From Eledone cirrhosa (Eukaryota): a stretch of 64,000 nucleotides of DNA. The DNA lies in contig OZ024741.1 of the NCBI GenBank assembly GCA_964016885.1, positions 253,952,001 to 254,016,000 of the forward strand. The letters run 5' to 3'. Under the pieces are notes generated by a model. That model saw only the letters and a program-made list of their open reading frames with translations. It was not told the DNA's origin and made no database searches. The translations under genes and the position numbers were made by a program. Of the stretch, positions 20,251-37,472 are shown piece after piece (the first letter of the stretch is position 1; every line of letters starts with the position of its first letter).

Positions 20251-20391
20251 CAATATAATTATTTCATTACCTAAGGTTTCGAGAAACTAGATGATTCTTG
20301 CAGAAACTTCTACCTAGTTCATCACGAGCTAGATGTTTCTGCAAGAATCATCTAGTTTCTCGAAACCTTAGGTAATGAAATAATTATATTG
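20251..20391. repeat. Fold-back palindrome (57-bp arms) overlapping a degenerate hammerhead motif (20318-20379, plus strand)
   Basis: Arms 20251-20307 and 20335-20391. ttcat-C(TG missing)ACGA-gctagatg..catctagt..-GAAA-ccttag-GTA-atgaa. Confidence 0.8.
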
Positions 20392-20408
20392 TGTTGCTTA
20401 TTATGTAA

Positions 20409-21759
20409 TCTATATATATAAAACTGAGGTTGTCTGTCTGTCTATCGATTTTTGGCACACATCTCCTCTTAGAATCTCTCACGGAATTGCACCGAAATTG
20501 CTATACTTGTACATTGAGCCCTAGCGAAGACATCGGAAAAAAAATATTTCAAATTGACCCGCCCTATCTGACGAAATCGAATATAATGTATCGATTTTTG
20601 AGCGTAAGTGATCAGTTATTTCCCTTTGTTCTGTTTACATTCAGCGTAGCGTCTTACGTTCTCTTTACATTTTCTGCGTGCAAAAATAAAAAAAATGATT
20701 TCCCTTTGTTCTGTTTACATTCAGCGTAGCGTCTTACGTTCTGTTTACATTTTCTGCGTGCAAAAATTAAAAAAATGATTTCCCTTTGTTCTGTTTACAT
20801 TCAGCGTAGCGTCTTACGTTCTGTTTACATTTTCTGCGTGCAAAAATTAAAAAAATGATTTCCCTTTGTTCTGTTTACATTCAGCGTAGCGTCTTACGTT
20901 CTGTTTATATTTTCTGCGTGCAAAAATTAAAAAAATTACGCTGGCAAAAATTAAAAAAAATTACGCTGGCTTTCTCAGCGTTTAAAATGACATTAACACA
21001 ATACACAGCCTTTTAAAACAATATTTTTACTTGAAAACAAGTCTATTTAAAGACTACATAAAACAAGCAAATATTTCGTAAAAAAAAGCAAAAATTATAT
21101 AAGTTTATTTAAAATATATGTATCTGTAAATTTCGTTAGGCGTGCAGACAGACAGTCGTGCAGACAGATAGTCGTGCAGAGAGGTGATATACGCGTGCAG
21201 ACAGATAGTCGTGCAGAGAGGTGATATAGGCGTGCAGACAGACAGTCATGCAGAGAGGTGATATAGGCGTGCAGACAGACAGTCATGCAGAGAGGTGATA
21301 TAGGCGATTATTTCCCTTTTATGGAATGAGCAGACGATTAGCGAATGTGCAGACGATTAAGTAAATCTTTAGTAGAGTGAATTGGAATCTCCAGTTTGTT
21401 TAATAGCTTCATTTGCACTGTACTGCCTTTGTATGCTACAACGCTTTAAAAGTTCGGCGAGTTCATTACTTCGTAAGTTATTGATATTTATTTTTTTATT
21501 ACGACGGTTAGCAAACTTTCCCTATTAAACGTTTAAATTAATTTTACGGTCTTATAAGGCTGAATTTACTTTAATTCGGGTTATCGTTGTTTTCTTAACT
21601 TCATAAGGCATATTGTTGGTTGAGGGAATATTAATCAAAAACACCACATGCAAGTCTGCACAGTAGACACTACAGTTTTTAAGCCAAAAAAGAAACTTAA
21701 CATTGTAACTTTAACACAGCTACTGAGCGACCCCGAGCAACGCCAGGCTTTACTGCTAG
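20409..21759 (+). mobile_element. Non-autonomous Helitron with internal ~79-bp (20618-20937) and ~36-bp (21137-21306) tandem repeats
   Basis: A|TCTATATATATAAAA start. GC-rich subterminal CCCCGAGCAACGCCAGG and CTAG|T end. Termini are shared with other copies in the window. Confidence 0.78.
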
Positions 21760-21760
21760 T

Positions 21761-22340
21761 GTATATATATATATATATATATATATATATATATATATAT
21801 ATATATAGAGAGAGAGAGAGAGAGAGAGAGGGAGAGAGAGAGAGAGAGAGAGAGAGAGAGAGAGAAAGCGAGAGACAGAGAGGCAGTAATGAAAGAGATT
21901 AAAAAACAGTTGGGTACGATGGAAGGGCTAAGAGAGAATGGGTGAGAAAGTTAGATGGGGTGAGAGAGAGATGCGGGTGAGAGAGAGATGGGGGTGAGAG
22001 AGAGAGAGATGGAGGTGAGAGAGAGATGGGGGAGAGAGAGAGATAGGGGTGATAGATAGATGAAAGAGTATTAAATTGATGGTACTGTTGGTGGTGGTGG
22101 CTGTAGAAGTGGTGGTGATGGTTGTGGTTGTGGTAGTGGTGGTGGCGGTGGTGGTGGTCGTCGTCGTCGTCGTCGTTGTGGTGGTGGTGGTTGTGGCTGC
22201 GATGTTGGAGGTGTTGCTGTTGGTAATGGTAGTGATGGCTGTATGGTGATGGTGGTGATGGCTGTATGGTGATGGTGGTGGTGGAGATGATGATGTTGTT
22301 GGTGGTGGTGGTGGCGGTGGTGGTGTGGTGTGGTGTGGCA
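21761..22340. repeat. (TA)n, (GA)n and GGT/GAT-rich low-complexity tracts
   Basis: Directly visible. Confidence 0.85.
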
Positions 22341-22603
22341 GGTGGAATTTTAAGTGACACATATTGGGCGAGAAACCAAGTTTCAGAAGTATATCTCGCA
22401 GTCTCCATTACAATCGCCATCTTGATGTTCGTTTCGCCTTGTTTGCACGGGTGGGCAGGTCTTCTCTGTCACAACGTATCCCTAATTATAGTGGTATTAT
22501 GTCACCTTCGTAAAGATCAGCCAACATCTTGTGATCAGTCTCTACCACTTCGTCCCATATCGTCTTGGATCGATCTTTTCCATAGATTCTATTCACTTTA
22601 TGT

Positions 22604-22935
22604 GAAGGCGCGTGGTTTTGTGGTTAAGATATTCAGCTCATGATCGTAAGGTCGTGAGTTCGATTCCCGGCGGTGCGTTGTGTCATTGAGCAAGACACTT
22701 TATTTCATGCTGCTCCAGTCCACTCAACTGGCAAACATGGGTTGTACCTGTAATTCGTGTAATTCGAAGAGCCAACCTTGTCAGATTATGTATCAATCTG
22801 TATCTCCCTGAGAACTACTTTAAAGTTACGAGTGTTTTTGGAATGCTCAGTCACGTCCACGTTAATTTCACGAGCAGGCTGTTCTGTTGATCGTATCAAT
22901 TAGAACATTCATCATCGTAACCGACGGAGTGCCAT
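22604..22935 (+). mobile_element. tRNA-derived SINE, family 2
   Basis: tRNA-like head with GAGTTCGATTCC B-box and TTGAGCAAGACACTT body. The head recurs at 49735 and the 3' part recurs inverted at ~60305-60680. Confidence 0.75.
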
Positions 22936-24089
22936 AATTTACTTTATGTTCTCTGCACTTATCCACATTATATTCTCTGTCGCCCCTGCATACTAAGCTT
23001 CCTGAACCTTTTCCAGCCAATACTTATTCTAGTTAGTTTGCTTTGGGAACACAAACACTCACCGCTTATTAGTTGCTATGGAAACCAAAACCTATCAACT
23101 TCTATTGTAATCCTTCCGAGTTTTTGTCAGAATCTATTTTCCACGTCTTCTTAATGATACTGTTCCTGTACATCTGCCACATACGAAGTCAATCTTTTCC
23201 GTTAGCCTGCCGTGGATCCCACTACATCACTTGTACGTTCTATGATTTACACTGTGTAGAATTCCTGCTTGCTCCTTTTCATCATATCGAGCATAGTTAT
23301 GTACCAGACAGTATCAAGGACCTATCTTCTTTCTTATTTACTAAACCTTGAGTCTTTATTGATTTGCATTAACATTTATCGACAGTCAGACTTTGTTTTC
23401 TTGTTATAGGTCTCTAACGAGGTCAACTTTGCCTTTAGCCCATTCCAGGTCGATGATAAAAGTACCAGTCGAGAACTAGGGTCGATTCTTCCTCTATATC
23501 TCTTTCTCATTTCCATTCTATCACTCTCTACTCTTCTCTTTCTATCACTCTCTACTCTTCTCTCGGAGAAATCTATTGTGTTCAGACCTGCAGAAGATTG
23601 GGCTCCACCAAGTTATTAAGAAAATTCCCTAGAAACTCCGTATGTCAACTCTCAGGAGTTACGGGACCATGCCATACCATAGGTCTGTAAGCGATCCTCT
23701 TTCCCATCATATGTGTAAACTAGGCCTTCTCTGAATTTGTGACCAGTCGACGGCACTTTTAGCCTTCATGTCTTCTTTCGCCAAATTGTTTTTTTTAAAT
23801 TATTATTTTCTCTAAACCCGTTACTTTTTACACTGAAATCACTCATCAATAATCTATGTTGGATCGTACATTGTTCACAAGCGAAAGTTTAGCTTCATAA
23901 CCATTTGCATATTCCATTTTCTGGTGAGAATAAAGACTGTCTGGTTTGTGTGTTCACTTGATTGATAGGTGATAGATGATCAAGAGGCTGACACATTTTC
24001 TGAAGTAGTTATTGTAAATGGTTTTATCATTTCACCGTCCTCATTTCTGGCCACATGGCCATATCCTCCATGTACACATGTGTAGCCAT

Positions 24090-36026: not shown

Positions 36027-36073
36027 TGCCTTGAAAAGTCCCACCATATGGTCGGACGAAACGGCTGTCGGCA
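36027..36073 (+). ncRNA. Type-I hammerhead ribozyme, U3-A8 core variant
   Basis: tgcc-TTGAAAA-gtcc caccatatggtc ggac-GAAA-c ggct g-TC-ggca. About 50 nt upstream of (TA)n. Confidence 0.72.
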
Positions 36074-36149
36074 ATAAACTTGTTATAATGTCATAATAGT
36101 TCCTTTGTTCTTTTTCATTAATACATATATATATATATATACATACATA

Positions 36150-36313
36150 GATGGATCATAACGCACCAGAGTACTCAATACTTAGGGTAGTAGAGTGGGA
36201 AATAGGAAAAAGTATGACCCCGACGGCAGAGCTCGAGCCGTTTCGACGGCTATTTCTCTCCAGAAATAGCCGTCGAAACGGCTCGAGCTCTGCCGTCGGG
36301 GTCATACTTTTTC
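36150..36313 (-). mobile_element. Short insert in (TA)n, family E, with perfect 52-bp-arm palindrome (36206-36313) centred on a hammerhead core
   Basis: Arms 36206-36257 and 36262-36313. Minus strand reads CTGGAGA-ga aatagccg tc-GAAA-cggc tcgagctct gccg-TC. Confidence 0.75.
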
Positions 36314-36893
36314 ATCTATATATATATATATATACATGTGTGGTGGGTGTATATACACACCAGCAGTAGATCAATATAATAAACTAAAACTATATAGCAA
36401 TAGCCTACACAAGGTGATAGGTGACTGAACCATTAAAACATATACACCACTAGCCCTCCACCACCCTACTTCTTACCCTGCACTTCCCTACGCATACCTC
36501 TCCTTTCTTTCCACAACACCGATTGGCTGCTAACCAAAGCAGTTTGTTGCTTACTCTGACAGTTTGTTGTGAAGGTCTGCAGGTCACAGCTCTCATTTGA
36601 ACCCTTGCCAATAGCAACTAGTGTGGGGGACGGAAGGGGGGAAATTGTGGCTGTCATGTGACCGAGGGAAATATTGAAATTTAACCCCTGCTGTTGGTCA
36701 AGTTTAACTAGTCAGATTTGTTTCTGTTGGTTTCTATCCACTCATACACTGGTCTGGAACTATATATATATATATATATATATATATATATATATATATA
36801 TGAAAAATTCGGGATCTCACGTTAGTAATGGTCTAATTAGTTTTTACCGCCTCCATTCTATATATATATATATGTATATATATATATATATTT

Positions 36894-37178
36894 GTATTGA
36901 AGTTTCCGTTGAAAACAGAAAAAGTCATAGGAGTGAAGAGTGCTCTATGTAAGTACCAGAGCAAAATTTAATGTATAAAAAACGACCTGGTTTAAAATCC
37001 TATTGACTGAAGAGTGCTCGACTTTAAAGGGCTGGAAGGTGCCAATCTCATAAAGATGTAGAATATGCTGCGATCATTCCCTTGGGAGCTGTATAAGTAT
37101 TGAAGTTTCCGTTGAAAACAGAAAAAGTCATAGGAGTGAAGAGTGCTCTATGTAAGTACCAGAGCAAAATTTAATGTC
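36894..37178. repeat. ~82-bp direct repeats (36894-36975, 37098-37178) between (TA)n tracts
   Basis: GTATTGAAGTTTCCGTTGAAAACAG...GCAAAATTTAATGT occurs twice. Confidence 0.8.
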
Positions 37179-37295
37179 GTTTTTTATACATTATATATAT
37201 ATATACATATATATATATATATATATATATATATATATATATATATATATATATATATATATATATATATATATATATATATATATATATATATA

Positions 37296-37472
37296 ACGAA
37301 GGAAATGTGGTAAGGAACCAGGTGGACCATAACGCACCAAAGTACTCAATACTTGAGGTAGTAGAGTGGGTAATAGGAACCAGTAAGACCCCGACAGCTG
37401 AGCTCAAGCTGTTTCGAGAATTAGCCGTCGAAACGGCTTGAGCTCAGCTGTCGGGGTCTTACTGGCTCCTAT
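37296..37472 (-). mobile_element. Second family E insert with ~45-bp-arm palindrome (37373-37472)
   Basis: Homologous to 36150-36313 (CATAACGCACCA..GTACTCAATACTT..GGTAGTAGAGTGGG) but with a different apex and arm length. Confidence 0.75.

Follow-up and report, generated by a model that had tools for sequence, protein, structure and literature searches.

Our analysis indicated that four hairpins in a 64,000-nt stretch of the Eledone cirrhosa genome (hereafter the window) are probably leftover 3′-end copies of Penelope-like elements (PLEs), in keeping with a miniature form of the known PLE insertion of an inverted copy plus a tail. Our main reading, to which we give a probability of about 0.6, is that they are short head-to-head PLE 3′-end insertions in (TA)n and that the staggered arms of the two family E copies among them likely arose by twin priming. 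The hairpin structure itself is already known, and the stalling of reverse transcription in a ribozyme that a preliminary description had claimed for it is not supported. The features concerned are given below in window coordinates.

14694–19964, unstranded: PLE-A complex insertion, head-to-head junction at ~17660 inside the ORF
15645–15837, plus strand: PLE-B stub, bounded by (TA)n runs, its first letter immediately following core position A9
20233–20409, unstranded: insert 1, head-to-head, 75-bp outer arms and inner pairing to a 5-nt loop near 20320–20325
20268–20326, minus strand: hammerhead remnant of insert 1 (TGATGA/stem II 5′ strand, GAAAC, palindromic stem III, UH)
27385–30720, minus strand: PLE-B long copy, with a broken RT + GIY-YIG ORF and core CTGAAGA at 27579, of the family from which the stub derives
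30815–30882, unstranded: insert 2, hairpin 30836–30882 with its apex, 30859, within CTGATGA (30858–30864, plus strand)
30882–33680, plus strand: PLE-C, direct copy truncated at 31121 in RT, 240-bp inverted 3′ piece
35745–36110, plus strand: PLE-F 3′ end, whose U3-A8 variant hammerhead (36031–36069) is intact and served as control
36149–36201, minus strand: family E copy 1, tail of ~53 nt on a single arm only (copies aligned over 36149–36337 versus 37320–37492)
36202–36257, minus strand: family E copy 1, tail-bearing arm (GAAAC, stem III, GTC, putative stem I 3′ strand)
36259–36313, plus strand: family E copy 1, inverted tail-less arm, beginning 16 nt 5′ of GAAA and supplying the loop
37320–37417, minus strand: family E copy 2, tail and tail-bearing arm, beginning 2 nt 5′ of GAAA
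37416–37472, plus strand: family E copy 2, inverted tail-less arm, beginning 14 nt 5′ of GAAA, 10-nt loop, ending in (TA)n
54504–54817, unstranded: control hairpin that lacks a hammerhead half, with arms of 131 bp, ~37 nt of extension on one side only and flanking (TA)n left and right

All four inserts are hairpins, as first described, with measured arms of 75 bp and 4 mismatches in insert 1 (20233–20409), 23 bp and a 1-nt loop in insert 2 (30836–30882), 52 perfectly paired bp and a 4-nt loop in family E copy 1 (36206–36313), and 45 bp and a 10-nt loop in copy 2 (37373–37472). The narrower limits originally given for insert 1 (20251–20391) describe its perfect inner part, but the outer arms extend to 20233–20409. 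Seven such hairpins were counted in the 48.7 kb of non-microsatellite window, compared to 0 in each of 20 simulations. Four further hairpins in the window, at 37643, 54504, 61202 and 61439, carry no hammerhead half and were absent from the preliminary description. A 13-mer common to insert 1 and the 37643 hairpin was considered as a sign of homology and rejected, as 18 of 2000 shuffles equalled it, which is not significant among many comparisons. The hairpins as well as the sequencing reads display an inverted, 5′-truncated copy with a head-to-head joint at its 5′ end. The insert ends lie in (TA)n, no empty target site was seen, and a bias to (TA)n or AT-rich targets is seen both in the window flanks and in the reads.

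The two family E copies differ in apex and arm length (52 versus 45 bp), as had been reported, and their arms agree at 38/38 and 37/38 positions within a copy and at 31–32/38 between copies, so that the fold-backs formed independently. Each has a 53-nt tail, previously overlooked, on one arm only. Ordinary MITEs with fixed terminal inverted repeats, or chimeras made during library construction, would be in keeping with the high abundance and the TA-rich targets. However, a variable apex and a one-sided tail are not those of fixed family repeats, the 3′ half is of hammerhead type, many junctions are non-overlapping, and junctions were seen again in a second sample and in the assembled window. 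This reading is largely refuted and we consider it very improbable; the inserts are independently formed miniatures of the inverted-pLTR PLE insertion, as the preliminary description held.

Family E was followed in contigs of samples X1 and X4 and in reads of another sample, X9, with window copy 1 as the coordinate reference. Behind 36257 the sequence continues with GGACTAA (plus strand) in 42 contigs of X1, 5 of X4 and 1774 reads of X9, and reads before 36259 end in TTTAG. Since the reads show no CUGANGA there, the core-like heptamer at the apex (36258–36263) was made by the junction. The earlier placement of the family E apex at a CUGANGA core had to be abandoned, as neither the reads nor the window hold a core 5′ of the apex. 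Loose ends before 36202, the sharp tail-less end beside (TA)n, were found in 176 contigs of X1, 12 of X4 and 3430 reads of X9. Joints were called at 80% likeness over sides of 21–41 letters, a setting flagged as error-prone, and 13 of the 15 listed run from 36180–36223 to 36259–36267; one further listed junction lies at 36177, and 32 more joints and 304 loose-end rows fall outside the listing. That 10 of the 14 listed junctions land at 36259 is in part imposed by the reference, whose likeness to family E ends there. Nine of the 14 share 1–3 letters with the family E 5′ context, with intervening letters unspecified in 8 of the 14 and 8–11 unrelated letters in two records, and a single G stands between the sides in at least 4 X1 joints. 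Junctions 36195 and 36212 were found again in X9. The apex thus varies over 36177–36257 and the inverted arm has a nearly fixed 5′ end, so that the conspicuous hairpins have their apex near the ribozyme remnant by selection.

At about 110 nt this very abundant family fits as a whole insertion into one short read, and it therefore allows the origin of the inverted repeat to be settled by counting which arm bears the loop and where the arms start. Both window copies carry the loop on the inverted tail-less arm, which starts 5′ of the tail-bearing arm (16 versus 13 nt 5′ of GAAA in copy 1, 14 versus 2 nt in copy 2). The same order holds for 14/14 listed junctions beyond the window copies, in a read comparison where junctions of opposite stagger could hide as small gaps, and also for PLE-A, whose inverted piece begins ~350 codons 5′ of the direct piece and repeats the family E stagger at kilobase scale. 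Eight of the 14 stop inside the tail, with arms that do not overlap. A copy made by snap-back must nest in its template arm and leave the loop on that arm; the staggered arms therefore favour twin priming. The snap-back of cDNA that had been proposed is impossible for both family E copies and the 14 listed junctions, which are staggered the opposite way. PLE-C, with its nested inverted piece, fits either mechanism.

Long palindromes are unstable, and once-perfect palindromes might later have lost their centre by deletion while gene conversion kept the arms alike. Insert 1, with a perfect middle and mismatches both inside and outside that middle, would suit such a history. Deletion should strike either arm, however, and in both window copies as in each of the 14 listed junctions it is the same arm that is trimmed and the other that is spared; we regard centre deletion as unlikely.

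Under twin priming, the PLE endonuclease would nick both target strands and each end would separately prime reverse transcription. Synthesis of one cDNA would begin at the inner site, the tail-less end at 36202, and extend to a nearly fixed limit 16–20 nt before GAAA. The second cDNA, begun at the tail end (36149), would break off at a variable point, either in the tail or further on as far as that limit, possibly upon collision with the first RNA:cDNA hybrid or because a second RNA is copied. Head-to-head joining of the two cDNAs would use 0–3 matching letters, and a long hairpin would appear only when the second cDNA nears the 5′ limit. It counts against this reading that overlaps of up to 56 bp require strand displacement or a second RNA, neither of which is required in twin priming of the L1 type, to which Ostertag and Kazazian reportedly attributed the 5′ inversions of L1 in 2001. 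The geometry, the tail, the fixed tail-less end, the variable stop and the abundance are observed directly, and from them we infer both-strand priming, a PLE parent for family E and the same origin for inserts 1 and 2. The 5′ limit may be set by the transcript start, by RNA processing or by the end of a short master copy; for family E a short master RNA devoid of the core is our first choice. According to PMC11167929, purified PLE protein is able to cleave as well as extend both strands, two internal start sites bound the tail, and ribozyme cleavage is dispensable.

A hammerhead-like motif is present in each of the four inserts, with no less than its 3′ half preserved; GAAAC, a palindromic or paired stem III and UH were recovered in 4/4 by motif search. 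The strong form of this half occurs 18 times in 48.7 kb versus 4.6 expected, and all forms, including the weak 2-bp form that is the only one in insert 2, occur 35 times versus 17.2. An Rfam search of the whole window (E≤1) gave 99 matches, the majority of them to miRNA models lying on hairpins or microsatellites, and no hammerhead family, intact motifs included; all ribozyme calls here are therefore motif-based. A CUGANGA core with stem I closed around it is found in none of the inserts, and judged from sequence, those lacking the hammerhead 5′ half would not be expected to self-cleave. Folding of the arms of family E, insert 1 and insert 2 gave no signal (z-scores −0.7 to +1.1). Among related PLE loci (80 kept of 282) a type I hammerhead occurs in 53/80; in 253 kb the same loci yielded 4 hairpins, all of them lacking a hammerhead 3′ half, a scarcity that is no control either way because many contigs look collapsed.

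The turn-around had been placed at the core or in stem II, and for the inserts at 20251 and 30845 this holds. In insert 1 the turn-around is the core/stem II junction; the stem II 5′ strand (20323–20314) pairs at 9 of 10 positions with the 10 nt preceding GAAA, stem III is of the type of related PLEs, the stem I 5′ strand is absent and at most 6 core letters are present. Insert 2 has its apex in CTGATGA and its minimal 3′ half, GAAACAGTT, at 30841–30833 (minus strand) on the other arm, 12 nt beyond; the core is present and the stem I 5′ strand is replaced. Its left side passes into (GA)n(TA)n, and on the right it directly adjoins the inverted PLE-C end. For insert 1, both arms of which contain loop II, and for family E, whose upstream letters are heterogeneous beyond ~7 nt (agreement 0.44–0.55), we considered and rejected a naturally long stem II made perfect through template switching. 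Pol III A/B boxes in family E were likewise rejected, with spacing too short by eye against the consensus.

The PLE-B stub derives from an RT + GIY-YIG element, PLE-B, which has a second 3′-end copy at 53832–54304. It does start right after CTGAAGA of its parent at 15645, as described before, but its two copies (15645 and 19000) are one event, the stub being duplicated at 18801–19000 (minus strand) inside the 1.8-kb inverted repeat of PLE-A. The stub has its starting point, the core/stem II junction, in common with the inserts at 20251 and 30845. The claim that three families begin at the hammerhead core stands with a weaker signal: 3 of 14 hammerhead-bearing insertions stop there versus 0.5–0.9 expected (P 0.015–0.065), a count of three events picked post hoc with approximate element boundaries.

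The preliminary description explained such ends by reverse transcription stalling in the folded hammerhead, with the cDNA snapping back to prime itself. Inserts 1 and 2, with apices at the core and loops of 5 and 1 nt, the stub beginning after A9 and the post hoc excess at the core agree with it, as does the depth of X1 contigs, which doubles past the PLE-F core (21,011 to 45,469); self-priming of PLE palindromes was proposed in PMC3846280, and snap-back is possible for the inserts at 20251 and 30845. On the other hand, family E has no core to fold, neither the four other hairpins nor the junctions of PLE-A and PLE-C fall within a hammerhead, and raw-read depth at PLE-F falls across the core in X9 (207, 132, 111, 88) and in X4. 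Moreover, reverse transcriptase works in the 3′ to 5′ direction and meets the core only once the 3′ strands of stems I, III and II are copied; a structural stop would thus be expected 3′ of the ribozyme, at the stem I 3′ foot and not at CUGANGA. Stalling is therefore a weak and improbable explanation.

Alternatively, the template RNA may have its 5′ end at the core/stem II junction in several families, through a transcription start in the pLTR or scission in the core. Such an RNA would not conflict with twin priming and would account for the limit being fixed. The stub points this way, as do inserts 1 and 2, and the family E 5′ limit begins with GTCC, like stem II of two intact neighbours (36038, 46375). 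Metal-dependent cleavage in the hammerhead core has reportedly been described. PLE promoters are internal to the pLTR (PMC2377424). Set against this are the small number of events (three, chosen post hoc, with approximate boundaries), the D. virilis start site, which lies 46 nt before an intron ending at helix I and hence not at the core, and the lack of a consistent step in PLE-F read depth; the known 5′ part of family E forms no stem II, so that its limit may be in loop II. We thus hold this possibility only tentatively. Equally speculative is the fuller scenario in which several PLE families here were copied from RNAs cut or started at this junction, and, decapitated and non-self-cleaving, spread as a very abundant 110-nt non-autonomous family whose thousands of staggered junctions would show that the inverted pLTR and tail arise by both-strand priming at two start sites and not by self-priming.

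Against the main reading, the window yielded no ORF-bearing element that could be the parent of family E, of insert 1 or of insert 2. Pfam searches with 8 ORF pieces gave 0 families and a PDB sequence search 0 matches, and PLE identity therefore rests on homologues; by their zinc-finger and CCHH motifs, compared with PMC8557442, the ORF-bearing elements of the window appear to be Neptune-type. The family E pattern had 2 matches in viral contigs, unrelated beyond the motif, and 0 in metagenome contigs.

The closest known systems are the complex insertions of EN+ PLEs, for which an inverted 5′-truncated copy, a one-sided tail and a (TA)n bias have been described (PMC8557442, PMC3846280). Shared features are the head-to-head inverted copy with a junction palindrome, the tail on one arm, (TA)n targets and a type I minimal hammerhead in the 3′ repeat. 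The units here differ in measuring only 50–180 bp, and in missing the core and the stem I 5′ strand. The family E tail, 53 nt versus 30–40 nt there, speaks against twin priming, and so does the interpretation of such palindromes as self-priming in PMC3846280, against which the stagger argues in turn; in PMC8557442 the origin of the inverted repeats and one-sided tail is stated to be open. Non-LTR retrozymes and dispersed minimal hammerheads (bioRxiv 10.64898/2026.07.22.740005; PMC4209133) are likewise non-autonomous PLE derivatives with type I hammerhead sequence, and opposite-strand motif pairs 100–700 bp apart have already been seen among them, whereas the inserts here are not tandem and hold no complete ribozyme. 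L1 twin priming (bioRxiv 10.1101/2024.12.14.628481) also joins two cDNAs from two target ends head to head, but in family E the site of the second priming is constant, lying at the tail boundary, the pieces often overlap into hairpins and there is no poly(A). With PAc Poseidon in vitro (PMC11167929, in the part available) the similarities are two internal start sites bounding the tail, an AT-rich target, extension of both strands and dispensable ribozyme cleavage; inverted copies are not addressed in that part, and the ORF elements of the window are, by their motifs, Neptune-type. In the literature outside subscription journals we found no paper linking PLE junctions to both-strand priming. 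The family E junctions favour such priming and tie in with the two start sites seen in vitro, and they offer a means of testing how the inverted repeats of a known class of insertion are made.

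The window is animal DNA rich in (TA)n, in which several Penelope-like elements (PLEs) of the endonuclease-positive kind lie in broken form. Among 730 candidates, a piece of the RT of one of them, PLE-C, matched 49 relatives, of which those with a species name came only from Octopus bimaculoides and Argonauta hians, and tblastn of these relatives mapped RT and GIY-YIG parts on three elements.

RT and GIY-YIG parts mapped by tblastn of the PLE-C RT relatives
PLE-A, 16684-18200, RT and GIY-YIG parts
PLE-B, 28300-30720, RT and GIY-YIG parts
PLE-C, 31126-32600, RT and GIY-YIG parts

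The window PLEs carry a zinc-finger ahead of the GIY-YIG domain and a CCHH motif and, compared by these motifs alone, would match the Neptune type of PMC8557442. PLE-A is accompanied by an inverted repeat (14694-16473 and 18207-19964, 96% alike) that includes about 1.3 kb of neighbouring DNA past the element's own 3' end, with another hammerhead element and a short PLE-B 3'-end copy (the PLE-B stub); this extra DNA was likely captured by read-through. Elsewhere, a probable SINE of about 190 bp is dispersed over the window, with copies at 13401-13773, 24340-24605, 25511-25726, 49465-49958 (as an inverted pair), 56000-56200, 59000-59208 and 61670-62720, and positions 1-12700 are a long CAC/CAT-rich satellite that yields spurious long open frames.

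Our analysis confirmed that the four hairpins of the preliminary description exist.

Hairpins of the preliminary description
20233-20409, insert 1
30836-30882, insert 2
36206-36313, family E copy 1, tail-bearing arm on the minus strand
37373-37472, family E copy 2, tail-bearing arm on the minus strand

Seven hairpins of this strength were found in the 48.7 kb of non-microsatellite window, compared with none in each of 20 simulations. A motif scan detected GAAAC-stem III-UH in all four; four further hairpins (at 37643, 61202, 61439 and 54504) lack this hammerhead half, which is thus present in four of eight. Rfam returned no hammerhead family among 99 matches over the whole window, intact motifs included, and the ribozyme calls therefore rest on the motif; they are supported by 80 related marine PLE loci, 53 of which have a type I hammerhead built in the same way. 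Hairpin 37643-37828 has 77-bp arms with (TA)n at both arm ends, no tail, a translation loosely like the family E tail (LLP...LS) and a relative at 38077-38140. Hairpins 61202-61274 and 61375-61574 are mutually related neighbours outside (TA)n, likewise without the hammerhead half. Three hammerheads that look intact, at 36031-36069 (+), 46382-46352 (-) and 38039-38010 (-), carry the U3-A8 variant of the core (TTGAAAA) known from Schistosoma PLEs. At 27170-27220 (+), a canonical type I hammerhead with a 7-bp stem I lies in a short element that follows (TA)n and adjoins the PLE-B 3' end; this monomer appears retrozyme-like. Family G (34177-34726 and 46762-47311, -) has the hammerhead 3' half, its second copy showing an 8-bp stem I and no recognisable core between the two.

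The apices had been placed inside the hammerhead core or stem II, and this holds for inserts 1 and 2, which turn at the junction of the two. The apex base of insert 2, 30859, is U4 of CTGATGA, and its other arm holds a 12-nt stem II region followed by GAAACAGTT, resembling short variants among the related marine PLE loci. The minus-strand arm of insert 1 starts with TGATGA, and 10 nt from 20323 pair at 9 of 10 positions with the 10 nt preceding GAAA; TGATGA is therefore either the core end or the stem II start, and the turn lies at the junction under either reading. The PLE-B stub starts at 15645, directly behind A9 of its parent, in line with the preliminary description; a second stub copy at 19000 belongs to the 1.8-kb PLE-A inverted repeat and is not an independent event. 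Eleven other hammerhead-type insertions, with boundaries set by eye or self-BLAST, extend 69-3141 nt past the core position. Leaving out the motif at 38019 (no boundary) and family E (no core), 3 of 14 stops fall at the junction against 0.5-0.9 expected in an 11-20 nt interval from the stop rate of hammerhead-type insertions (P 0.015-0.065, post hoc test), which hints weakly at a clustering of 5' ends at the core. In the PLE-B hammerhead, loop II (54027-53910, -; also 27579, -, and 15645-15757, +) contains an 82-nt stretch with splice-site-like GT...AG ends, the last G being that of GAAAC; splicing is predicted to restore this G and shorten the loop. In D. virilis Penelope an intron also ends in the ribozyme, at helix I (PMC4209133).

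In family E the proposed core found no support in reads. Both copies read, on the minus strand, inverted arm, apex, hammerhead 3' half, tail and (TA)n, with 53 nt in common past one arm (36149-36201 in copy 1). Arms agree better within copies (38/38 and 37/38) than between them (31-32/38), so the two fold-backs formed separately, as had been proposed. Within the window, neither family E nor inserts 1 and 2 have a parent element with an ORF. Window 35730-36750 was compared, at 80% likeness, with 4 of the 11 listed runs: three sets of contigs and a raw RAD run. Depth over family E versus flank, which does not give copy numbers, was 1.0-2.4 million versus 5-9 (summed) in contig set X1 and about 8,700-13,100 versus 0-1 in X9, raw reads of another sample. 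The tail-less end is sharply defined: loose ends of (TA)n lie before 36202 in 176 X1 contigs, 12 contigs of set X4 and 3430 X9 reads. On the plus strand, GGACTAA stands behind 36257 (42 X1 and 5 X4 contigs, 1774 X9 reads) and TTTAG ends before 36259 (107 contigs, 382 reads). Family E sequence does not run on into CUGANGA at the apex, and agreement of 0.44-0.55 among loose ends places the divergence of flanks after about 7 nt; the copy 1 loop letters are therefore those of the tail-less arm, and its core-like heptamer is a junction product. The 5' limit starts with GTCC, as does stem II of two neighbours, and the known 5' part formed no stem II on folding. In run X5 (organism B), most of five pieces matching 35799-36233, the 3' region of PLE-F (another PLE) and the family E tail, did so at 95% or more, and both families are therefore common to a relative.

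Thirteen of the 15 joints among those listed (32 further joints lie outside this listing) span 36180-36223 to 36259-36267 in reads at 80% likeness; the others are a PLE-F indel and an opposite-strand joint from a single start. With an additional joint, 36177 to 36259, and excluding a backward one (36278 to 36259), 14 junctions were counted, and these are other inverted copies of family E. Ten land at 36259, a landing partly forced by the reference, with junction sides of 21-41 letters; eight stop within the tail, a part that the inverted arm lacks; in nine, 1-3 letters are common to the junction and the 5' context of the family. Extra letters may be hidden in eight, and two records hold 8-11 unrelated letters. 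Two were found again in the second sample.

The preliminary description explained the hairpins by reverse transcription stalling in the folded hammerhead and the cDNA snapping back to self-prime. A snap-back cDNA copies part of itself, so that the new arm is nested in the old, which also carries the loop; self-priming on antisense RNA (PMC3846280) has the same nested geometry. The template would be the tail-bearing arm, since only there is the tail present. The tail-less arm, however, reaches further 5' in both window copies (in copy 2 it starts 14 nt before GAAA, the tail-bearing arm 2 nt) and in 14 of 14 listed junctions, which refutes stall and snap-back for family E; for the other inserts it is unproven. 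Because of hidden letters, the forced landing, short sides, opposite-stagger junctions possibly hidden as gaps, and contigs that cannot hold arms above about 30 bp, 14/14 gives no share of snap-back-compatible copies.

The stagger probably reflects two separate primings. A purified PLE protein has been shown to cleave both strands and extend them, starting at two internal sites on either side of the tail; ribozyme cleavage was dispensable (PMC11167929). One target end would prime at the inner site and copy up to the 5' limit of the RNA, the other would prime at the tail end and halt at a variable point, and the two cDNA ends would be joined via microhomology as in L1 twin priming, a model outlined in bioRxiv 10.1101/2024.12.14.628481. 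The PLE-A ORF shows the same stagger, its inverted piece running from near residue 102 and its direct piece starting in the thumb near 456 (same numbering); the nested PLE-C arms decide neither mechanism. A long hairpin requires a variable stop near the fixed limit, so that picking out long hairpins would by itself yield apices close to the ribozyme remnant, with no stall needed. At the core of PLE-F, whose ribozyme is intact, no consistent depth pile-up was seen across X1, X4 and X9: contig depth doubles past the core in X1 and depth drops in X9 and X4. An internal PLE promoter has been described (PMC2377424), and the D. virilis Penelope start lies away from the core (PMC4209133).

Both a MITE and a retrozyme identity of the hairpins were rejected. 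They remain useful in that they would allow the formation of PLE inverted repeats to be tested cheaply across a genome. The order of parts in family E is that of the 'inverted copy plus tail' unit in PMC3846280 and PMC8557442. Minimal hammerheads paired on opposite strands have been reported previously (PMC4209133), as have non-autonomous derivatives of PLEs (bioRxiv 10.64898/2026.07.22.740005 and PMC6765202), and the four hairpins are a miniature of the known PLE complex insertion.
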